This document shows, piece after piece, positions 40,447-56,361 of a stretch of DNA of 64,000 nucleotides. How positions within the stretch are numbered: position 1 is the first letter of the stretch; each line of letters opens with the position of its first letter. The notes under the pieces were generated by a model. The model made no database searches. It saw nothing but the letters and a program-made list of their open reading frames with translations, and was not told the DNA's origin. The position numbers were made by a program, and so were the translations under genes. The stretch is from a virus. The stretch is from IMG/VR virus record IMGVR_UViG_3300029112_000175, positions 1,552-65,551 of that record. The stretch is one strand, 5' to 3'.

Positions 40447-41433
40447 CTACTGCATATTTACGATTGGAGTAGCACTACCCTGAACCTGTGGGACTTCACC
40501 TTTCCACTTCTCGATTTTCTGCTTTTCAATCAGTTCAGGAGTAAGAGATGCTGCAATCTTAGCATTAGCAGTTGCTTCTGCCTCAGATTTAATTCTCATA
40601 GCTTCAGCTTCACCTTCTGCCTGAATCTTTTTCTGCTCTGCAACAATAGAAGCCTTTTCTTTTTCCTGTTCTGCTGCAATAAGAGCAACTTCCTTATCCT
40701 TATCAGCCTGAACCTTCGCAGTTTTTGCCTCAATATTAGCGAGTTCTAATTCCTGCTGTGCAGTTACTTTCTTCTGAATTGCAGCAGATGTTTCAGAATC
40801 TGTGGAAATATTGGTAAAGTTTACTGTGTCAATGATAATTCCATATGGCTCGAATTTCTGTTTTAAATATACATCAAGTGCTTCGTTCAGTTCCTGACGC
40901 TTATCACCGAATACATCAGTTACAGGATACTTAGCAGTTACTTCCTGCGTCCATGCTCTCATCTTTGGTTTAATAAATGTATCTTTAATAGACTTTCCAG
41001 GCTGTCCTTTAAACATAATAAATGTATCTGCAATCTTTGTCTGATCAAACTTATATGAAAATTCAAGATCAACTTTTAACGACTTACCATCAGATGTTGG
41101 AGTGGAAAAACTTTCGTCTGCTGGGGAATCCCCTTTTTCTTCTGATGTAAGATAAGACTGTTCAATACCAATAGAATATGTAGTTACTTTTTTTGTTGGA
41201 GCCACAAAATGCCATCCCTGTGTGATAACTTCTCCATCAACTCCTCCATTCATACTGTTGTATACGATTCCCACATATCCAGCTGGAATTTTCTCTGTAC
41301 ACTTAATTCCTACAAACAGACCACCAGCAATTAATACTGCTAAACCTACTCCACCAATTAAACCTTTACTCATTCTCTTTATTCTCCTCTTTCTTTTCTT
41401 TTTCGTTACCTTTAAGTGCTTTTTTAACATCAT
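40447..41433 (-). CDS. SPFH/Band-7 (stomatin/prohibitin/HflK-like) membrane protein
   Basis: Basic N-terminus then a TM helix (LIGGVGLAVLIAGGLFVGI). SPFH core (AGYVGIV...). Long Ala/Glu/Lys-rich coiled coil. Confidence 0.6.
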   Translation of the reverse strand: MMLKKHLKVTKKKRKRRIKRMSKGLIGGVGLAVLIAGGLFVGIKCTEKIPAGYVGIVYNSMNGGVDGEVITQGWHFVAPTKKVTTYSIGIEQSYLTSEEKGDSPADESFSTPTSDGKSLKVDLEFSYKFDQTKIADTFIMFKGQPGKSIKDTFIKPKMRAWTQEVTAKYPVTDVFGDKRQELNEALDVYLKQKFEPYGIIIDTVNFTNISTDSETSAAIQKKVTAQQELELANIEAKTAKVQADKDKEVALIAAEQEKEKASIVAEQKKIQAEGEAEAMRIKSEAEATANAKIAASLTPELIEKQKIEKWKGEVPQVQGSATPIVNMQ

Positions 41434-42788: not shown

Positions 42789-42817
42789 TATTTATCACTC
42801 CTTTTTATTTTTATTAC

Positions 42818-42886
42818 TTCCTCATCTTGGACTCGAACCAAGTTTTGCAGAGTGAGCTGCCGTGCTTCCTATTACACCAATGAGAA
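42818..42886 (-). tRNA. tRNA-like gene; anticodon loop noncanonical (6-nt loop CUCACU), identity undetermined
   Basis: Minus-strand sequence TTCTCAT-TG-GTGT-AATAGGAA-GCAC-G-GCAG-CTCACT-CTGC-AAAA-CTTGG-TTCGAGT-CCAAG-ATGAGGA-A. Acceptor stem is perfect at 7 bp. T-arm is CTTGG/CCAAG with loop TTCGAGT. D-arm has a GG loop. No encoded CCA. Confidence 0.5.
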
Positions 42887-43034
42887 ACCATAAACGTTTT
42901 ATTAAGTGGCTCTGTTGCTTAAGTCTGCGCATCAACCAAGCAATAACAATCCGATGGGAAATTTGTTTTTAAAGTTTTACATCCTCTTGCCACCGTTCTG
43001 CGACTTTCCACATCACAGATGAATCAGAGCCAAC

Positions 43035-43106
43035 GGCGAATACCGGATTTGAACCGATACTTCTGAGATCAAACCTCAGTGTACTACCTGATTATACTAA
43101 TTCGCT
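43035..43106 (-). tRNA. tRNA-Gln (anticodon UUG)
   Basis: Anticodon stem CTGAG/CTCAG with loop GTTTGAT, giving U33, UUG and A37. T-arm ATCGG/CCGGT with loop TTCAAAT. D-arm GTAT/GTAC with GG loop. Acceptor GCGAAT/ATTCGC. No encoded CCA. Confidence 0.7.
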
Positions 43107-43142
43107 AGATGTGACTGATTTCTCAGCCACTTATTTATTCTC

Positions 43143-48427: not shown

Positions 48428-48567
48428 GATAGAGTTAGTAGGCTATGACACCTACCAACTCTTGAATTATTTATTCTTCTTACGTTTTCCTACGATAAAA
48501 CCTACTCCAAAGCATACACCAAGACAGATTAAGAAAACACCAATATTTAGTACAATCATTTATTCTC

Positions 48568-50178
48568 CTATTCGATACACTTAAAAGATACATCTGTTCT
48601 ACGATTCATAGCCTTATGTTCATCTGTATCATTATCTACTATAGGTTTACTAGATCCATTACCTACAGTAATAATTCTATCAGCAGAAATTCCATTTAAT
48701 ACAAAATACTGTTTTACAGTTTCTGCTCTCTGCTGAGATAACATCTTATTGGCAGTATCTTCAGGATCAGAATATGGATTAGGGTCAGTATTACCAGCAA
48801 TCTCAATAATTGTTCCATCCAGAACTTTCGCAATACTGATAAAGTCATCTAATTTCTGAGTAGCTTCAGCGGAGTCAGTAAACTTTGCGGTATTAATAAT
48901 AAAGTTTACCGTTGCAGATTTCTGTAATAATGCAGTAGTATCAAGTACCTCCTGTTTATTCTCTTCTGTGACAGTTACATTTACATCAGTCTTTGTAATA
49001 TCCTGTGCATCGTACTTAGTTTCCAGTTTAGAAACATAAGTATTATCAAAAATAGTATTTAATAAATCCCTATTTACAGTTTCACCAATAGATTCCCAAA
49101 CTCCACACATATCAGAAAAAATTGTCTTTGCAGTTCCATTAAGTAAACTCATGTTATCAGCATATGTGCATAATTTTGCAGATTCACAATTTCCTAAAAT
49201 ATCCTCATCAGAGGCAGTAGAAAACATCGGCATGACAGACTTAATAGTAGTTAAATCAGTAGTGTATAAATCAGCCGCCTGAAAAGCGCCATCAATAAAT
49301 GCAGTTACAGTATCTGGATATTTCTTTGCAAAATCATCATTAAATAAAATTCCATCCATAATTAAACTGGAAGAACTTGCAGTGCTAAATAGGATATGTG
49401 CATCAGACATATTCTGTGCCTGAGTTAAATATGGTTCCCATGTTGCAGCTACATCAATCTGGCCTGCAAAGAAAGCTTTTGCTGCTTCATCTGGTGTTTC
49501 AAAATATACAAGATTATTAATAATAGAATCTTTTTCTTCCTGGGTTAAATCAGACTGGTTTACAAACCAAACCACTAAAGAATGAGCCTCTGAGAACTGT
49601 GGAACGCCAATTTTTGCATTTACTAAATCAGATACAGAATTAATAGAAGATTTTGTGATAATGCCATCTCCACCATTAGAGAAATTGCTGATGTATGGCA
49701 TAATTACATTTAGGCCTGCGTCCTGAAACTTTTTAGATAAGAAAGCGGTTCTGTTAATGGTATAGCCTGCTGCATCTAATTTCCCACTAATTAAAGCGTT
49801 GCTAGACTGGGTTGCATCATTGATGATGCTAATATTTACTTTTATTCCAAGTTTGTCATAGATGGAACCTGGTTGTGTGGTAAGCCCGTTGTTGGCGTCA
49901 ATAATTGGTTTCCAACCGATCCACTCATCAAGAGACACATTGATTGTTTTATCATCTACCTTATCAGTGTTAATTACGTTACCATCATCATCCGCTGCTA
50001 CAGGAGCTGCCATCTCTGGCTGTTTAGAGGTGTTTTCTGTCTTTGTAGTTTCTTTTTTACTGTGTTTAATAAATCCTGTTTTTAATCCTAAAACTACACC
50101 GCCACCAATTAATGCCATGATAAGAATCATGATCAATACTTTTGCTGCTTTAGTCAGCCGAAATCTTCTTGTACTCAT
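48568..50178 (-). CDS. Membrane-anchored NMT1/SsuA-like substrate-binding domain fused to C-terminal OmpA/MotB peptidoglycan-binding domain
   Basis: N-terminal TM helix (VLIMILIMALIGGGVVLGL). Central periplasmic-binding-protein-like region. C-terminal OmpA signature NTDPN...AMNRRTDVSF. Confidence 0.5.
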   Translation of the reverse strand: MSTRRFRLTKAAKVLIMILIMALIGGGVVLGLKTGFIKHSKKETTKTENTSKQPEMAAPVAADDDGNVINTDKVDDKTINVSLDEWIGWKPIIDANNGLTTQPGSIYDKLGIKVNISIINDATQSSNALISGKLDAAGYTINRTAFLSKKFQDAGLNVIMPYISNFSNGGDGIITKSSINSVSDLVNAKIGVPQFSEAHSLVVWFVNQSDLTQEEKDSIINNLVYFETPDEAAKAFFAGQIDVAATWEPYLTQAQNMSDAHILFSTASSSSLIMDGILFNDDFAKKYPDTVTAFIDGAFQAADLYTTDLTTIKSVMPMFSTASDEDILGNCESAKLCTYADNMSLLNGTAKTIFSDMCGVWESIGETVNRDLLNTIFDNTYVSKLETKYDAQDITKTDVNVTVTEENKQEVLDTTALLQKSATVNFIINTAKFTDSAEATQKLDDFISIAKVLDGTIIEIAGNTDPNPYSDPEDTANKMLSQQRAETVKQYFVLNGISADRIITVGNGSSKPIVDNDTDEHKAMNRRTDVSFKCIE

Positions 50179-50190
50179 ATATGTTCTCTC

Positions 50191-50928
50191 CTACTTATTA
50201 TATTTTTTCTTTAAAGAATCCAGATAATCATTACTACTATTTTTTCTCGCTTCAACTTCTGCTTTTGCTAATTTGGTAGACATTTTATTTTCATGAACTA
50301 CCCTAGAACCTTCTACAATAGCATTAAGATCTTTATTTTTTTCTCTTACAGAATCAAGCATTTTATCAGTAGCAGTGACATTTTTCAATTCGTCCATGTC
50401 ATCATAGACTTCCTGCAACTGTTTCTTTACTTTCATATTCTCTACAACTTCTTTACTCTCACGCTTCAATTTTCTGAGATTCTGTTCGCAGCGTTCTTGA
50501 GTTTCTTTCGCAGCAGCTGTTGCTTTTTCATACGCAGCCACAAGCTCCGTACAACGATTAATATCGGCAATAACTTCTTCTCTTTCTTCTGCTTTCAACT
50601 GTGCCAGATCCATCTTGCCCGCTTTTACTAAAGACTCACAATCAGTTTCCGTCTTCTTTAACTTATTTTTAAGAACTTCCATGTCCTTTTTAGCATTGCT
50701 TAGTTTACCAGCAGCAAGCTTATAAGCATTATCAGCTTTGTTGTAGGAATCTTGTGCCTGACTAATTTTCTCACCATAGATAGCTTCTGCTCCTTCTGGT
50801 GTAGTAGCCATATCTTTAATGAATAGTCTTGTCCATCCCATTAAAAGTGTTCTTGCTTCTGGGAACATAATTAGAATTACAACAAAAAGAAAAATAACCA
50901 CGCCAACAACAATAGTTTTCAGATCCAT
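50191..50928 (-). CDS. PspA/IM30-like coiled-coil membrane-stress protein
   Basis: N-terminal TM helix, then a PspA-like helical pattern (...EGAEAIYGEKISQAQDSYNKADNAYKLAAGKLSNAKKDMEVLKNKL...). Confidence 0.4.
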   Translation of the reverse strand: MDLKTIVVGVVIFLFVVILIMFPEARTLLMGWTRLFIKDMATTPEGAEAIYGEKISQAQDSYNKADNAYKLAAGKLSNAKKDMEVLKNKLKKTETDCESLVKAGKMDLAQLKAEEREEVIADINRCTELVAAYEKATAAAKETQERCEQNLRKLKRESKEVVENMKVKKQLQEVYDDMDELKNVTATDKMLDSVREKNKDLNAIVEGSRVVHENKMSTKLAKAEVEARKNSSNDYLDSLKKKYNK

Positions 50929-51464
50929 TAGACCTCACCTCCTACAAATGAAATCAACTTATTAATTCTATTTGCTTCAACAACAATAGTTTCAGTAGAA
51001 GCTTTTAACTCGGCCTGTTCCTGTGCAATATTTTTTTCTAATTCTGCAATTGTTTCTTTAGCTGCTTCAATTCTTTCCTGATAATCAGCAATCAAACTGT
51101 CTTTTTCAGAAGTAATTTTATTTAAAGCAGCGTTTAAAACTTCTACTCTTTTATTGCCATCTGCGACAACTTCTTCTGATGTAAGACCAAATACTCCAAG
51201 GGCAGATAACACACTGTTCTTTTTTGTTTCAGTAACCATTTCTTTTGGCAGAGCATTCATCAAATCTTCAATCTTAAAGATGGATTTAGACTGATCGTAT
51301 AATTCATTCTGTGCGTAAATATCAGATACAAGCGTTTCTGTATTTACCACATCAAGATTGATATTCGCGTCTTCTTCATAAATTGAGTCGCTTGTTTCTA
51401 ATCTCTGTTCCATTAGAGTGTCATCAACTTCTTCAACTAATCCAAGTTTTTTTAATAATCCCAT
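50928..51464 (-). CDS. coiled-coil hypothetical protein
   Basis: ORF abutting neighbours. Confidence 0.4.
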   Translation of the reverse strand: MGLLKKLGLVEEVDDTLMEQRLETSDSIYEEDANINLDVVNTETLVSDIYAQNELYDQSKSIFKIEDLMNALPKEMVTETKKNSVLSALGVFGLTSEEVVADGNKRVEVLNAALNKITSEKDSLIADYQERIEAAKETIAELEKNIAQEQAELKASTETIVVEANRINKLISFVGGEV

Positions 51465-51479
51465 ATTGTCTCTCCTCTT

Positions 51480-52091
51480 TTATAAATTTATAATCACATC
51501 ACACATTTTCTTTGCTTCTTCATTACTGTGTGTAACTATGATCACTGTATTATTCTCTACTTTATGTTGTTTTAACACGAGATTCTGCATTGTAGTTCTA
51601 GTTTGCGGATCAAGTGCAGATAACGGTTCATCCATTAATATAATTGCCGGTTTTGTAAATAATGTTCTGGCTAAAGCTAATCGTTGTCGCTGCCCTCCAG
51701 ATAATTGTTTCGGAAACTTTTTTTCGTAATTTTCAAGACCGACCTGTTTTAAAAAATCTTTTGCCAATTTAACATCTTCTTTTGTAACAGATCTTTTTAT
51801 TTTAACTGGCAATAAAATATTCTCTAAACAGTTCATCCAATCAAATGAAGTATAATTTTGGTGCATCATGAAAATATTGTTCTTTGAAGCTTTGGTTATT
51901 TTTTCTCCATCTACAATTATTTCACCATTTAATGGCTTCATTAATCCGGCAATTGTTCTAAGCAACGTTGTTTTTCCACAGCCAGATTCTCCTAAAATTC
52001 CATAAATTTTTTTATCGAATTTCATTGAATAATTTTTTAGTAATGGCTTATCTCTACTATAGCCAGTGGTTAGATCTTTTAATTTAATCAT
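51480..52091 (-). CDS. ABC transporter ATP-binding protein (NitT/TauT-type)
   Basis: Walker A GESGCGKTT. Signature LSGGQRQRLALAR. Walker B IILMDEPLSALD. Confidence 0.75.
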   Translation of the reverse strand: MIKLKDLTTGYSRDKPLLKNYSMKFDKKIYGILGESGCGKTTLLRTIAGLMKPLNGEIIVDGEKITKASKNNIFMMHQNYTSFDWMNCLENILLPVKIKRSVTKEDVKLAKDFLKQVGLENYEKKFPKQLSGGQRQRLALARTLFTKPAIILMDEPLSALDPQTRTTMQNLVLKQHKVENNTVIIVTHSNEEAKKMCDVIINL

Positions 52092-52830
52092 CTAAATACC
52101 TCCATTTAAATGCCCATTTAATTATTCTCTTACTAGCCCAATCAAATATGACGCTGATAATCATAATTACCATAATTGCCATAAAAACCATATCCGTTCT
52201 TCCTCTTGAGGAGCTTTGCTGAATAATCCATCCCAATCCGTAATGTGCATTAATTGTTTCTGCCACGGCAATGTATGTAAAACCGATACCGTACATCATT
52301 ACGAAGCTATTTAATATACTTGGCAGTGAAGCAGGAAGCTGAATTTTATATACAGTTTGTAGTTTATTCATTCCTATAGTCAAACCCGTATCAATCAAAT
52401 CCTGATTCACTTCTTCCAAACAGAGAATTACAGATGGCATCATATATACGAATGTTGCGATAAATAAGAACACAATCTTCATAAGTTCATCAATCCCAAA
52501 CCACATAATAAGTAAAGGATAAAATGCTGTAACTGGGATATATCTTAATGCACTGATAATTGGATTTAAAAAATCTTTTATTAATGGAATATTGAAAATT
52601 AATAGAGCTATTGGTAAAGAAATTATTGATGAAAGAATTGCTGCTATAGTCACTCTAAAAAAAGAATATTTAATCGCAATAAATATTTCTCCATTACATA
52701 TCAATACATATAAATTCCTAAATACGCTTTTAGGACTTGGTACAAAAATAGGATTATAATATCGTGCAGTAGTTGACCAGATCAAAAAAATACACAGAAT
52801 CAATAAAAATCTTTTTAATATATTTTTCAT
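52084..52830 (-). CDS. ABC transporter permease (TauC/SsuC-like)
   Basis: Six predicted TM segments. EAA-like loop IAVAETINAHYGLGW. Confidence 0.55.
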   Translation of the reverse strand: MKNILKRFLLILCIFLIWSTTARYYNPIFVPSPKSVFRNLYVLICNGEIFIAIKYSFFRVTIAAILSSIISLPIALLIFNIPLIKDFLNPIISALRYIPVTAFYPLLIMWFGIDELMKIVFLFIATFVYMMPSVILCLEEVNQDLIDTGLTIGMNKLQTVYKIQLPASLPSILNSFVMMYGIGFTYIAVAETINAHYGLGWIIQQSSSRGRTDMVFMAIMVIMIISVIFDWASKRIIKWAFKWRYLDD

Positions 52831-52933
52831 TTTGTTTTCTTTCTATAAATTTATGCCCAATGAAACGATCATTTCAACATAATTTTTGTTTCCAAAAACC
52901 CTTTATTTAAGCCATTTTTTAGATGTTAATTTT

Positions 52934-53203
52934 TTATTTTTCAATAACCTCAAACTCATATACGGAATTTCGTGTTTCTACCACTATCTTTCCATCTTCA
53001 AAAATAAAATCTTCCACTGCTGATGTAACAAGACATCTATCTGTCTGATCATCCCATAATAAGAAAAATGATCCATGAACTTTAACAGAGTGTTGATAGA
53101 TCCATTCGCCAGACATAGAAGGATGATTCTGTCTTAATTCTTCCATAAATTCTGTTTTCTCATTACCATCTTTATCTTTAACTGAAATGATTTTTAACTT
53201 CAT
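52934..53203 (-). CDS. hypothetical protein (start corrected to internal Met)
   Basis: The ORF track starts at 53254, overlapping the upstream gene by 47 nt. Internal ATG at 53201-53203 (MKLKIISVKD...) has SD GGAGAA 8 nt upstream. Confidence 0.4.
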   Translation of the reverse strand: MKLKIISVKDKDGNEKTEFMEELRQNHPSMSGEWIYQHSVKVHGSFFLLWDDQTDRCLVTSAVEDFIFEDGKIVVETRNSVYEFEVIEK

Positions 53204-53207
53204 ATAT

Positions 53208-53606
53208 TTATTCTCCATTTCCAACAACATTCTCAATGTTATGCAACATTTCAAGAATCTCTACTGCATTTCCACTAAACATATTGCCAGTGGTTTTAAT
53301 CTCATACTGCCACTTGTTTTTATCAGAAATGGTGATAACTGGAATGCTGCCGTACAAAACTGTTCCTGCCGGTATGCTCCATGCTGGTGTATACCATGAT
53401 CCTTTGCAGTGCCATTCATTTTTAAGAACCTTTAATTGCTGCTGACAATTCTTGTTATATGATCTCATGCCAGCTCTATTGACTGGATATACTCTCGGAT
53501 ACTCCACGCCTTCGATGTACAATGGTTCAAACTTGTTTACAACAAGTAAAACTCCATCTGTAATTCTGTAAATATCCTGATATTCTGTCTGTACTACTGC
53601 CTTCAT
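53208..53606 (-). CDS. hypothetical protein
   Basis: ORF in array. Confidence 0.4.
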   Translation of the reverse strand: MKAVVQTEYQDIYRITDGVLLVVNKFEPLYIEGVEYPRVYPVNRAGMRSYNKNCQQQLKVLKNEWHCKGSWYTPAWSIPAGTVLYGSIPVITISDKNKWQYEIKTTGNMFSGNAVEILEMLHNIENVVGNGE

Positions 53607-53610
53607 ATGC

Positions 53611-54825
53611 TCACCTCAATTCAATCAGATACTTAATAGTACATTGCTCTTCTTTGTAAACAATAATCTCATCATTACGCAGCATATCTCCCGCATGAGC
53701 GTGTAAACAATTCGCACCAGGACAAACGGATTGAAGTTTACTGTAATCAAAGCTGTAATATTTACTATCGAAGGAATACACATCATATGGTTTACCATAA
53801 GCTACATCCATTAATGCCATAAAACCAAAATTGGAATCACCTCTAACCCAATAGCTTCCACTCAAACTGGTATAACCAAGAGATTTTCTAGCTTTTGGTG
53901 CATAATAAATACCATACCCAAACATCTTACCCGTGATGACAGCATTAGTTGGTTTTAAGACAAGACCACTATTGATGATGAACCACCAATTTTCATTCCT
54001 GCTACCATGGAACAATAACTTTGTCTCCGTAATATTATTCTCTTTTACAAAATCATCAAAACGTTTCTGCGTCTTAAGGTTTTTGACTTTCCATGCCTTA
54101 TGGAATTTATCAGAGCATGATCCAAGTGCATCTTTAATAATAGCGATATCCTTTTTATCACATTCTTCGAATACCAGTCCCAACTGCTCAAGAATTGTAT
54201 TCTTGATTTTTACATCATTTTCCGCTTTTGTTTCTTCAATGACCTGTTTCTGTACGACCTGTCCTTTCATAACATCGAGCAGATCCTGTTCTTTTTGAAT
54301 AATCTCAGAGAAATTATTGCTAGACTTAGCAAGATAATCTGAAACGTATCCCATTTTTCTAGGAATAACAGTAAAGAGTTTTAACAGAATATTATTAAAT
54401 TCTTCAACTTCTTTAATATCAAGTAAACTTGTCAAAACATCTTGTGCTTCATCCACCATTGCCTGAGTTACTTTGTTAGAAGAAATCGTATAATTGTCGC
54501 TGATAGCTTTTCGTGCCATTGCTTGTAATCGTTCTACAATCTCAGCAATAACTTTATTTTCAATTTCTTTATATTCTGAGTTTTTAGGTTTTTCAACCTG
54601 AATTAAGTCTTCTACAAGTTCACTCTGATCAACATAGCCTTTGCGAAGTTTTTCTTTATATTTTGATTCCCACTGACTCATAGAATACTCTCTATGTTGT
54701 GGACTGCTTCCTACCCTTCCGTATTCAGCAGTCCAACTATCTCCATGAGGAATCTGTTTATAATATTTATTATTATTCGCAGAAGCAGTGACCATCACTA
54801 AATATCTTGGTTTGATCTCTGCCAT
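53611..54825 (-). CDS. PARP-like ADP-ribosyltransferase (WGR domain + helical domain + H-Y-E catalytic domain)
   Basis: N-terminal WGR-like HGDSWTAEYGRVGSS. C-terminal LLFHGSRNENWWFIINSGL...TGKMFGYGIYYAPKARKS...DEIIVYKEE aligns with PARP1 LLWHGSR...TGYMFGKGIYFAD...NEYIVY. His, Tyr and the catalytic Glu are all present. Confidence 0.75.
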   Translation of the reverse strand: MAEIKPRYLVMVTASANNNKYYKQIPHGDSWTAEYGRVGSSPQHREYSMSQWESKYKEKLRKGYVDQSELVEDLIQVEKPKNSEYKEIENKVIAEIVERLQAMARKAISDNYTISSNKVTQAMVDEAQDVLTSLLDIKEVEEFNNILLKLFTVIPRKMGYVSDYLAKSSNNFSEIIQKEQDLLDVMKGQVVQKQVIEETKAENDVKIKNTILEQLGLVFEECDKKDIAIIKDALGSCSDKFHKAWKVKNLKTQKRFDDFVKENNITETKLLFHGSRNENWWFIINSGLVLKPTNAVITGKMFGYGIYYAPKARKSLGYTSLSGSYWVRGDSNFGFMALMDVAYGKPYDVYSFDSKYYSFDYSKLQSVCPGANCLHAHAGDMLRNDEIIVYKEEQCTIKYLIELR

Positions 54826-54834
54826 ATATTCTCC

Positions 54835-55272
54835 TTATAATGTACAAACTAAAATCTCAATATCAGTATCAAAAAATACATCCTCTAACATTTCATATAC
54901 TCGATCCCATTCAAGCTGATCGAGGCCACACCCAATACGTGGCATTGCGATTTTAGTGATGTCATATTCTTCACAATAATCACGCATATCCACTAAAGTA
55001 TCATATAATGTTTCATATATAGGTTTGTGATAGCAACGAGGCTTTGTAACCAGATTAAATACGTTGTCAATGAGTAATGCTTTTCCTACATTATCGTATT
55101 TTTCTCCTTCTGGAATTGGATACTGACTATGTAATTTATATCTCATGTTATATACATCTACAAACTGCTTTGCAATACCAGCACCTAACGCATAATCACC
55201 ACTGATACAATGGGCCAAATAATAACCCTGTGGTACTGTAAATAAATCTCTCTGTTCTTCTTTAATATTCAT
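54835..55272 (-). CDS. macro-domain-like protein (ADP-ribose binding/hydrolase)
   Basis: LAHCISGDYALGAGIAKQF and IAMPRIGCGLDQLEW resemble macro-domain Gly-rich loops. Immediately upstream of, and co-directional with, the PARP gene. Confidence 0.5.
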   Translation of the reverse strand: MNIKEEQRDLFTVPQGYYLAHCISGDYALGAGIAKQFVDVYNMRYKLHSQYPIPEGEKYDNVGKALLIDNVFNLVTKPRCYHKPIYETLYDTLVDMRDYCEEYDITKIAMPRIGCGLDQLEWDRVYEMLEDVFFDTDIEILVCTL

Positions 55273-55315
55273 ATTATTTTCCTCCTATGAAATAAAACTT
55301 TCAGTTGGTTATTCT

Positions 55316-55612
55316 CTAAACAATAATTATTTCATTATATCTACGCAAAAGCTCTTCTCTATTTTCTATAACATATCTTTTTGCGTAATTATATCTTGAT
55401 TTTTTTATATTTCCTTTAAGAACACTACCATCAATTAGACTAATAACAGCCTCTTTGTCTTGATATTGAATATGAACATGCGGGAGATTATGACCGTTTT
55501 CTTTTGTGTGCATAATTATTTTGATGCCAAAATCGCTATATAATATGTTATAATAACGTTCATCTTCAAATATATATATTGCAAATTTTAGTCCATACTC
55601 TCCCATATTCAT
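55316..55612 (-). CDS. DUF4160-like small protein
   Basis: NGHNLPHVHIQY motif. Confidence 0.4.
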   Translation of the reverse strand: MNMGEYGLKFAIYIFEDERYYNILYSDFGIKIIMHTKENGHNLPHVHIQYQDKEAVISLIDGSVLKGNIKKSRYNYAKRYVIENREELLRRYNEIIIV

Positions 55613-55635
55613 TTCTCCTTTTTGTATCTATTCTA

Positions 55636-56361
55636 TTACTCTAAATTCTCTCTTGAAAATAACTGACATGCGATTCCGCAATCTTCCATTACTTCAAGAT
55701 CCATACGTCCACGTTTAGGATCAAGTTCATCCAGGAATACACCTTTGATACAGCTATGACCAATTTCTCTTTCCTCCTTGGCTCTGCGTTCAAAAACTTC
55801 GGGGAAATCTACTCGAATTTTATTCCAGTAGCCCATGCCACCTTTTACGCATCCAACGCAATTGTTGTTAGGATAACCTAACTCATACATCATTGGTCTC
55901 TTTAATCCAAGTTTCTTCGCCAATGCATGACAATCTTCTTTCGTAAATTTATTCTCGATTAATGGAAATTCATGATCATAATCTGTCATGGTATTTACTA
56001 AACGATCAGCTCTACGCTGCTCATTCATATCATATCCCCATACATAAATATGGTGATCTGGATGTTCTTTCTCCCATTGTTTTCGCACTTCTTTCTTTAA
56101 AAACTTAGTACAAGGCGCACCATATGGTGTATTAATACAACGAGTCTTCATAATCACATCATCAACATCTTTAAATCTGGTAGATTGCAATATTGTGATC
56201 TTTCTACCAAGAAGTTTCTCGCAATCATGCAGAAATCTCAGACTATCAGGATGCTGATTAGGAACGTGAGTATAAATAATCTCATCTACGTCCTTTGCTA
56301 AATAACATGCTACAAAACTACTAATTCCTGTACTAAACCAACAAACTTTCACACCAGCCAC
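55636..56361 (-). CDS. PAPS-reductase-family (PP-loop ATP pyrophosphatase, CysH-like) protein
   Basis: N-terminal VKVCWFSTGISSFVACYL (PP-loop-like). C-terminal Cys pair NNCVGCVKGG. Confidence 0.5.
   Translation of the reverse strand: MAGVKVCWFSTGISSFVACYLAKDVDEIIYTHVPNQHPDSLRFLHDCEKLLGRKITILQSTRFKDVDDVIMKTRCINTPYGAPCTKFLKKEVRKQWEKEHPDHHIYVWGYDMNEQRRADRLVNTMTDYDHEFPLIENKFTKEDCHALAKKLGLKRPMMYELGYPNNNCVGCVKGGMGYWNKIRVDFPEVFERRAKEEREIGHSCIKGVFLDELDPKRGRMDLEVMEDCGIACQLFSRENLE

Follow-up and report, generated by a model that had tools for sequence, protein, structure and literature searches.

Why should a giant gut phage carry genes for a complete solute importer, and what would such an importer do for it? 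This question is raised by a stretch of 64,000 nucleotides of viral DNA (positions 1,552 to 65,551 of IMG/VR record IMGVR_UViG_3300029112_000175, hereafter the window), in which the minus-strand genes from 52830 to 48467 form a single compact operon, overlapping or lying at most 15 nt apart. The operon comprises a TauC-like permease, a minimal ATP-binding cassette (ABC) ATPase, two coiled-coil proteins that we call ccA and ccB, a protein combining a transmembrane (TM) segment, a substrate-binding protein (SBP) domain and an OmpA-like domain (SBP-OmpA), and a TM peptide of 30 amino acids (aa). In our reading, to which we assign a probability of about 0.6, these genes are a conserved cassette for a phage-encoded, wall-tethered importer with a membrane-guarding PspA-like partner. 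An ABC importer anchored to the wall, locked together with an ESCRT-III-type protein and common to giant phages and Saprospiria, appears to be a system not described so far; a search of the literature gave nothing on the module itself beyond one supplementary remark on phage Psp genes.

Is the importer complete? The first gene of the operon (52084..52830, minus strand like all genes of the operon) encodes a TauC/SsuC-like permease of 248 aa with several hydrophobic segments, which matches Pfam BPD_transp_1 (E = 9.5e-19) and carries the EAA coupling loop DTGLTIGMNKLQTVYKIQLP at aa 147-166. Its best NCBIfam matches are TauC (3e-30), SaoP (4e-29) and SsuC (9e-22), plus ntrB, all under the equivalog cutoffs. 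The permease gene shares an overlap of 8 nt with the ATPase gene (51480..52091), whose product of 203 aa matches Pfam ABC_tran (E = 5.8e-32) and contains Walker A (GESGCGKT, 34), LSGGQ (130), Walker B (IILMDE, 150), the D-loop (SALD, 158), the H-loop (VTH, 186) and a Q-loop (HQ at ~aa 77-78). This ATPase, a minimal nucleotide-binding domain lacking a regulatory extension and an osmosensing CBS domain, is predicted to be catalytically intact. The initial annotation had proposed a full NitT/TauT-type importer with an ATPase at 51480..52091 and a permease at 52084..52830; the coordinates proved right, and the assignment is borne out by the ATPase motifs, the EAA loop and a class-F SBP. Judged from the encoded sequences, the operon is predicted to specify a complete type-I binding-protein-dependent ABC importer of the NitT/TauT family.

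The binding component is the SBP-OmpA protein of 536 aa (48568..50178). Its cytoplasmic tail is followed by a TM anchor (aa ~10-33), a disordered linker, the SBP domain (~76-390), a further linker and the OmpA-like domain (~436-536), with a single N-terminal hydrophobic segment spanning aa 6-37. The SBP domain scores 31.5 bits with Pfam NMT1 (cutoff 20.5) and 25.5 bits with NMT1_2 (cutoff 24.7) and matches the NCBIfam SsuA_fam subfamily with E = 1.5e-21; over its full length the protein corresponds to phrog_25518 (E = 7e-226). The OmpA domain matches Pfam PF00691 with E = 3.4e-16 (59.8 bits, gathering cutoff (GA) 27.2) and, in profile searches of the PDB, PA0833-PD, YiaD and the C-domain of Rv0899 (E = 1e-16 to 1e-18). 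It has kept D465 and R484 of the GNTD...LSxxRA motifs, an Asp/Arg pair that presumably contacts the diaminopimelate of peptidoglycan. The domain is predicted to bind peptidoglycan, which would make the SBP a bitopic protein tied to both membrane and wall. An N-terminally anchored SsuA/NMT1-like binding protein with a C-terminal OmpA domain had been proposed before, and the NMT1 and OmpA matches together with the hydrophobic segment agree with that description.

Residues 1-13 of the protein (50140-50178) contain, ahead of the TM anchor, a cytoplasmic juxtamembrane motif, [RK]-L-T-x-x-[GS]-K, that is kept from phage G to Saprospiria despite an overall identity of ~25%; a partner in the cytoplasm may make contact here. 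A twin-arginine signal in the same N-terminus (STRRFRL) was considered and rejected, as the RR pair is unconserved in the relatives.

What are the two coiled-coil proteins encoded between the ATPase and the binding protein? For ccB (50191..50928, 245 aa, with an N-terminal TM segment), the assignment as PspA/IM30-like comes from family-level Pfam matches and from the fold. Pfam PspA_IM30 (PF04012) is matched by 7/14 members of the ccB family with a best E-value of 7.8e-11, and the match of the window protein covers profile positions 14-217 of 220. In an AlphaFold2 (AF2) model, a TM helix (3-21) precedes a long hairpin (44-102/106-243, pLDDT ~90) that turns at a conserved AGK. The best Foldseek match was Vipp1 (6zvr, E = 7e-3, such weak E-values being usual for coiled coils), and comparison with PspA 4whe gave a root-mean-square deviation of 1.7 A over 114 residues and a TM-score of 0.76. 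Searches of ccB against PDB chains of PspA or Vipp1 with phmmer and hmmsearch gave no match, and only chance coiled-coil matches were returned. The amphipathic alpha0 helix is absent from ccB, and a hydrophobic TM segment (aa 1-32) stands in its place. With a median identity of 78% among IMG/VR viral loci, ccB is the best-conserved member of the module. Its modelled fold argues that ccB is a TM-anchored PspA/IM30-like (ESCRT-III-type) protein.

ccA (50928..51464, 178 aa), whose stop overlaps the ccB start by 1 nt, is a soluble coiled-coil protein recognised as a family of its own and by synteny. It has an N-terminal MGLLKKLGLVEE motif, which gives it an amphipathic N-terminus of the MGLLKKLG type, an acidic linker, a conserved LPKEM.TE.KK.SVL core and a C-terminal coiled coil. 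Significant Pfam or PDB matches are absent, the PDB profile search yielding chance coiled-coil matches only; the family consists of 368 clusters at 50% identity, all of ~170-200 aa, with no detectable relatives beyond. The phage-type and Bacteroidota-type versions of ccA and ccB have diverged beyond the reach of BLAST. Profile comparison with hhalign aligned window-type ccA to its Lak/bacterial positional counterpart with 57% probability (E = 1e-4) and ccB1 to ccB2 with 70% probability (E = 4e-5, 190 in-register columns), while four non-cognate coiled-coil comparisons run as controls reached 0.3-2.5%.

How far is the cassette conserved among phages? The window is AT-rich (GC ~33%), has nearly all its genes on the minus strand and a steady GC skew, and also encodes NrdD, an NAD-dependent DNA ligase, Pol III alpha, a DHH nuclease, DnaB, an RNA ligase, an HNH nuclease and tRNAs; this part of a very large phage genome serves replication and nucleotide metabolism. 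A megablast search with the region found no DNA-level match in 50,697 phage records, and only protein-level searches were informative. At the protein level Bacillus phage G is the nearest cultured relative, and gut-metagenome contigs of up to 487-774 kb carry near-identical proteins. The exact order permease-ATPase-ccA-ccB-SBP was found in 64 of the 72 IMG/VR viral contigs with enough upstream sequence, the members being 47-83% identical across contigs. Identity to phage G is ~50% and to Lak ~25%, where the Lak megaphages (Lak-B1) and the 735-kb phage LR756501 encode full-length SBP-OmpA homologues. This combination of intact loci and graded identities argues for long-term purifying selection within phages. 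The window order recurs in phage-G-like giant phages of Bacillota, and a rearranged order, ccA-ccB-SBP.OmpA-permease-ATPase, is present in the Bacteroidota phages, namely Lak and the 735-kb phage, as well as in contigs of Bacteroidales metagenome-assembled genomes (MAGs). The phage sequences in which the cassette was detected are giant genomes or fragments thereof.

In eight related loci, compared over 8-10 kb around the cassette, the genes in common with the window are the five of the cassette and no others; the PARP, Macro, DUF4160, PAPS-like, SPFH, HNH and RNA ligase genes of the window have no counterpart within that distance. As no flanking gene of the window is shared among these relatives, the conserved unit is the cassette alone. 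In the supplementary GenBank files of Al-Shayeb et al. 2020, further huge phages have a gene annotated as canonical "PspA" adjoining one for an "OmpA/MotB domain protein", and a "nitrate ABC transporter permease" is encoded within a few genes of this pair, an arrangement that adds support to the PspA assignment of ccB; the supplementary text notes that Psp proteins are widespread in huge phages.

Is the cassette confined to phages? On a Saprospiraceae contig (L017) the complete module lies between genes for polyphosphate kinase, PyrF, Mrp/ApbC, MarR and a SpoU methylase. A search seeded with the Saprospiraceae SBP gave ~2,970 relatives, whose contigs reach 8 Mb and whose database names are "NitT/TauT family ... 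substrate-binding protein" or "OmpA family protein". Five more bacterial loci, on contigs of 8.07, 3.72 and 3.20 Mb and of 452 and 232 kb, show the order ccB-SBP.OmpA-permease-ATPase among varied housekeeping genes, so that such a context was seen in 6/6 sampled Saprospiria loci (chromosomes or contigs); a ccA gene was called in 4/5 of the further loci and on the Saprospiraceae contig. Since these loci carry the same proteins in a housekeeping context, the SBP-OmpA fusion is neither rare nor phage-specific. It had been called unusual in the initial annotation, a view that does not survive the ~1,270 close phage-type and ~2,970 bacterial-type relatives, which NCBI and JGI have already named. 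The idea of a phage-specific fusion, suggested by a GTDB scan that gave 11 loci only, was likewise abandoned once the Saprospiraceae contig and the five further loci showed housekeeping contexts; loci of this kind had escaped the pattern-based scan. Giant phages of two host phyla can be taken, from these sequence relationships, to carry versions of a bacterial operon.

Which solute might be bound? TauA is the nearest solved relative of the SBP, both by sequence profile (E = 5e-12) and by Foldseek with the AF2 model (6ssy, E = 3e-15, TM-score 0.71). Eleven SBP residues are invariant in phage and bacterial members: N96, G98, D121, T140, S167, G169, D171, D242, P249, T266 and D275. Of these, D171, D275, T140 and D121 align with TauA chain residues E85, D184, G58 and S39, in an alignment of ~16% identity whose register could shift by one residue. 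With an offset of +21, checked by three residue identities, they are Glu106, Asp205, Gly79 and Ser60 of the published TauA numbering. Ser60, the counterpart of D121, adjoins Gly61, and S196/E197 align with TauA Ser131/Thr132; all aligned positions except 197 are invariant or conservative throughout the family. In TauA, Glu106, Thr132 and Asp205 bind the ethylamine part of taurine and Gln30, Gly61, Gly79 and Thr132 the sulfonate, and Asp205, which SsuA lacks, is the taurine-selectivity residue (PMC6906117). Because the putative counterparts of the amine ligands Glu106 and Asp205 and of the anion-binding positions are invariant, we tentatively propose, at somewhat less than even odds, that the solute is an amino-alkyl anion or zwitterion of the taurine/2-aminoethylphosphonate type. 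The label "phosphate ABC transporter substrate-binding/OmpA" has no support. A gene of the DDAH/arginine-deiminase (guanidino-modifying) family stands directly upstream of the module in 2/6 bacterial loci (L102 1759-2661, L104 1460-2713), a weak hint at a guanidino or amino ligand.

How does the cassette compare with known systems? With E. coli TauABC and SsuABC (TC 3.A.1.17) it shares a class-F SBP, a BPD_transp_1 permease with an EAA loop and a single ATPase, and the four TauA residues Glu106, Asp205, Gly79 and Ser60 appear to have invariant counterparts in the cassette family. It differs from them in that its SBP is TM-anchored and OmpA-fused rather than soluble and periplasmic, in the addition of a PspA-like protein, a coiled-coil protein and a micro-peptide, and in the absence of a TauD or SsuDE partner and of any sign of sulfur regulation. 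Like PspA, Vipp1(IM30) and LiaH, ccB has a long alpha1-alpha2 hairpin, and it aligns with the family profile nearly end to end, although the window protein scores below the gathering threshold; unlike them, it has the amphipathic helix swapped for one TM helix (two in the Bacteroidota type), and it occurs in synteny with an ABC importer and ccA instead of with PspBC, PspF or LiaI. Binding proteins kept at the membrane are known from Gram-positive lipoprotein SBPs and from the SBP-permease fusions OpuA and GlnPQ, and the Asp/Arg pair of the OmpA domain is that of anchors such as Pal, MotB and YiaD, whereas in the cassette protein one polypeptide joins an SBP to a signal-anchor TM helix and to a peptidoglycan anchor. 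We know of no characterised ABC system with a wall-anchored SBP. Phage-encoded components of ABC uptake have a precedent in the PstS that cyanophages express during infection; these phages add an SBP alone to the host transporter, whereas the cassette supplies a whole importer and accessory membrane proteins.

The closest counterpart is found in phage G (JN638751), where gp243-gp250 have the same order and 32-52% identity, with gp243 as permease, gp245 as ATPase, gp246 as ccA, gp247 as ccB and gp249 as SBP-OmpA; the record annotates these genes merely as 'ABC transporter' and 'OmpA/MotB domain'. The window cassette is a new member of a set that has been present in phage G since 2011. Phage G differs from the window by the small inserted open reading frames (ORFs) gp244 and gp248, by the absence of a MIVLNIG-type micro-ORF, by a substituted Asp in the OmpA domain and by a duplicated binding protein, gp249 and gp250 being tandem SBP-OmpA genes (L001 8815-12020). 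Additional binding proteins were also observed in Lak-like contigs of Bacteroidales MAGs, where an extra SBP of 378 aa without an OmpA domain is encoded just upstream of SBP-OmpA (L015, 6697-7833; L016, 3474-4610). The Saprospiria operon has the five protein types, the invariant SBP residues and the N-terminal juxtamembrane motif in common with the window, but its transporter genes come last, its SBP is only ~25% identical, its permease and ATPase, at 354-385 and 267-269 aa, as well as its ccA and ccB, exceed those of the window in length, and its ccB has two TM helices.

How, then, might the cassette work? According to the reading that we favour, the phage would install its own importer in the host membrane, with the binding domain held between the membrane by its N-terminal anchor and the wall by its OmpA domain. 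Being anchored on both sides, the SBP could not diffuse away and would need no host lipoprotein processing. It would capture a small solute and dock on the permease, and ATP hydrolysis would power the uptake. The PspA-like ccB would assemble together with ccA on the inner membrane face beside the transporter, and both would preserve membrane integrity and proton-motive force through a long infection cycle. As pay-off, osmolyte or envelope homeostasis seems more likely than a supply of sulfur or nitrogen. A more far-reaching version, which we hold to be possible rather than probable, is that all parts form one envelope-spanning machine, in which a PspA-like polymer would be coupled, by way of ccA and the [RK]LTxx[GS]K tail of the SBP, to an importer pinned to peptidoglycan by its own binding protein. 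If this were true, it would be a kind of wall-anchored, scaffolded transporter not described before and kept all the way from Saprospiria to the largest phages known; with its help, giant phages would hold host envelope and energetics together in a prolonged infection.

Giant phages contain hundreds of genes without a known purpose, and shared modules offer the best route to understanding them; the cassette is among the few multi-gene units common to giant-phage lineages as different as phage G, the gut Lachnospiraceae megaphages, Lak and the record-size 735-kb phage. Its cellular counterpart brings it within reach of work in culture, for example with phage G on B. megaterium or with Saprospiria such as Haliscomenobacter. 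If the proposed function is correct, this would be the first phage found to bring a complete ABC importer, the first wall-anchored SBP, and a fixed partnership of an ABC transporter with a PspA/ESCRT-III-type protein.

Several observations weigh against this reading. A human gut phage contig (MT835556, L002, 1469-5528) encodes permease, ccA, ccB and SBP-OmpA without an ATPase, with a gap of 217 bp between permease and ccA; in another locus (L012) ccA is missing and the ATPase is extended to 242 aa, and ccA is absent from 6/72 viral loci in total. Thus, not all parts are indispensable. In phage G both SBP copies lack the Asp of the OmpA domain. The NCBIfam equivalog cutoffs are missed widely for TauA (TIGR01729, 40 bits vs 304), TauC (NF007545, 105 vs 342) and TauB (NF008421, 146 vs 357). 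Identity of the SBP to TauA is low, as stated above, the Gln30 region of TauA falls outside the alignment, and binders of nitrate, bicarbonate, HMP/FAMP, thiamin, PQQ and sulfonate score nearly as close in fold. The initial annotation had noted a PspA/IM30-like protein next to the importer, and ccB does belong to the same operon, with family-level Pfam matches and a fitting fold, but the window protein itself scores below the Pfam threshold for PspA_IM30 (21 bits vs GA 33.9). The Bacteroidota ccB proteins, when tested singly, had no recorded Pfam match, their link to PspA consisting of the 70%-probability hhalign alignment and their position. Finally, conserved adjacency is the only indication of a physical association of ccA and ccB with the transporter.

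A different account was given by the initial annotation, which joined the importer, a CysH/PAPS-reductase gene, a PspA-like and an SPFH protein in one module for sulfur acquisition and membrane-stress management; sulfonate or taurine would be imported and its sulfur assimilated via the phage CysH. The TauA/SsuA-like SBP, the location of all genes on one strand inside 16 kb and the label 'phosphoadenosine phosphosulfate reductase' (PAPS reductase) of phrog_424 speak for it. The gene in question (55636..56361, minus strand, 241 aa) indeed belongs to phrog_424 (E = 5.6e-46), where the label is mere annotation, but its product has no match to Pfam PAPS_reduct (PF01507) or NCBIfam CysH, nor to any other Pfam or NCBIfam model, even at E <= 10. 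Its sole PDB match is PptA (21fy chain C, E = 2.3e-52), and PADLOC related it to SspD, a PP-loop phosphorothioation enzyme (E = 2.1e-9); it has a PP-loop-like STGISS motif, a CVGC pair and a C-terminal DCGIAC. As it fails the CysH model and has its affinities with the DNA-modification protein SspD and with PptA, the CysH reading is refuted on the grounds that the initial annotation had itself named, and the "PAPS reductase" label and the auxiliary-sulfur readings built on it lack support. An account of PptA function was not found in the accessible literature, and PMC10853773 does not treat the phage clade. Homologues of the gene occur mostly in mycobacteriophages and other small phages, siphophages of 40-110 kb without transporters. 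The SPFH/Band-7 gene is where it had been placed (40447..41433, minus strand; Band_7 E = 2.2e-24, 86.9 bits vs GA 23.6), but it lies 7 kb off the cassette and corresponds to phrog_200 ('lipoprotein'), with homologues in 665 phage records, especially of Staphylococcus and Bacillus myoviruses, most of which lack any such transporter. A single module of importer, SPFH and PAPS-like genes is contradicted by the eight related loci, in which neither gene accompanies the cassette, and by the PARP, Macro and DUF4160 genes that intervene in the window before the PAPS-like gene. Sulfur could be drawn from taurine only with enzymes of the TauD, Xsc or IslA type, none of which was seen among the genes examined. 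The TauA-like pocket is the sole support for a purpose in sulfur acquisition, and the combined module is in our view very improbable.

Could the cassette act against other phages or host defences instead? As an envelope-modifying device it might bring about superinfection exclusion or blunt membrane-permeabilising abortive-infection effectors, with the ABC transporter providing an energised anchor or sensor. Proteins of the PspA family act against membrane damage, ccB is the best-conserved component, and the ATPase is lost or the SBP duplicated in some loci, all of which would fit. Al-Shayeb et al. also suggested that membrane and surface proteins of huge phages may affect susceptibility to other phages, and Psp is widespread in these genomes. 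However, the bacterial operon lies among housekeeping genes outside defence islands, and PADLOC gave generic OmpA/MotB and coiled-coil matches only. ATPase motifs, EAA loop and TauA-like pocket are strictly conserved at ~25% overall identity, arguing for real solute binding and transport, and we regard a conflict device as unlikely. A narrower form of the favoured explanation is a compatible-solute and envelope-homeostasis system, in which import of a taurine-like osmolyte and stabilisation by the PspA-like partner would manage turgor and crowding during synthesis and packaging of hundreds of kb of DNA per virion. The amine ligands of the TauA-like pocket, the presence of the PspA-like protein, the peptidoglycan tether linking wall and membrane and the occurrence in giant phages are in line with this form, which is nevertheless rather doubtful in its specifics: the ATPase has no osmosensing CBS or regulatory domain, taurine is not a general bacterial osmolyte, and the bacterial neighbour genes are heterogeneous. 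That the genes are inert passengers, recently captured from a host or introduced by assembly contamination, is highly improbable. Close homologues are labelled Clostridium sp. 12(A), Enterocloster and Eisenbergiella, but the loci under such bacterial labels have a phage-like gene content of their own (DnaB, primase, Pol III alpha, Sak, RNA ligase), the cassette is intact and diversified among the viral contigs, and it is shared with phage G and Lak.

The taxon labels deserve comment. Close homologues carrying the names Clostridium sp. 12(A) and Enterocloster are encoded in phage-like surroundings that include DnaB, primase, Pol III alpha and Sak genes. In Clostridium sp. 12(A) (JAGI01000002.1, L005) the cassette lies at 384-406 kb of a 3.5-Mb contig, in a stretch encoding Sak, DnaB, primase, PDDEXK, Pol III alpha and ERCC4, which points to an integrated giant prophage or to a chimeric assembly. 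Genes for an isochorismatase (PncA-like), Pribosyltran, NAPRTase and NAD synthase lie immediately upstream and may be a set by which a phage salvages or reconstitutes NAD+. A gene of 241 aa upstream of the cassette was compared with the PAPS-like gene of the window, which is also of 241 aa, and homology was rejected. Further contigs with the phage-type cassette (L009-L011, L013, L015, L016), from GTDB representative MAGs, had been binned as Blautia, Faecalimonas, Lachnospiraceae, Clostridia and Bacteroidales and are probably giant-phage DNA co-binned with host genomes. Phage proteins have thus received bacterial names because giant-phage DNA sits in bacterial assemblies or bins.

At its 3' end the operon contains an unannotated ORF for a single-TM micro-protein, MIVLNIGVFLICLGVCFGVGFIVGKRKKNK (48467..48559, minus strand, 30 aa), read from the sequence as one TM helix and a basic tail. 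It starts 8 nt past the SBP stop and is preceded by an AGGAG ribosome-binding site. A hydrophobic ORF of 22-45 aa occupies the equivalent position in 72/78 viral loci with downstream room; the homologues have many substitutions, yet keep the pattern M[IV]xLN[IV]..F...G[FY][IL]VGK[RK]. Directly after the stop of the micro-ORF, a 13-bp RNA hairpin (48431..48462, minus strand) without a U-tract folds at -20.2 kcal/mol (z = -4.5), a value equalled by 0/200 shuffles, and is likely the 3' end or a stabiliser of the operon transcript. A consensus scan for promoters and terminators found fewer promoter-like sites than in shuffled sequence and was uninformative. All genes listed in the initial annotation were correctly located, but it had overlooked this micro-ORF and the membership of the ccA gene, as well as the PARP, Macro and DUF4160 genes lying between the transporter and the PAPS-like gene.

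These three genes, all on the minus strand, adjoin each other and encode a WGR and PARP-catalytic protein with an intact H-Y-E triad (53611-54825; HGS 273, YGIY 304, DEIIVY 385) and, by profile matches, a DarG-like macrodomain protein (54835-55272) and a small DUF4160/DhiT-like protein (55316-55612). The set is absent at the equivalent position in the eight relatives and looks like a phage ADP-ribosyl writer/eraser set unrelated to transport; together with the PAPS-like and SPFH genes it is independent of the cassette. Matches to ZorA/ZorB, JetC and DruC (PADLOC, NCBIfam) were rejected as evidence of a defence system, being generic coiled-coil or OmpA matches. Two tRNA genes (42817-42887 and 43033-43107, minus strand) were detected with ARAGORN downstream of a metallophosphoesterase gene; for one of them the program reported the anticodon 'ca' without assigning an amino acid, and the other is a tRNA-Gln(TTG).

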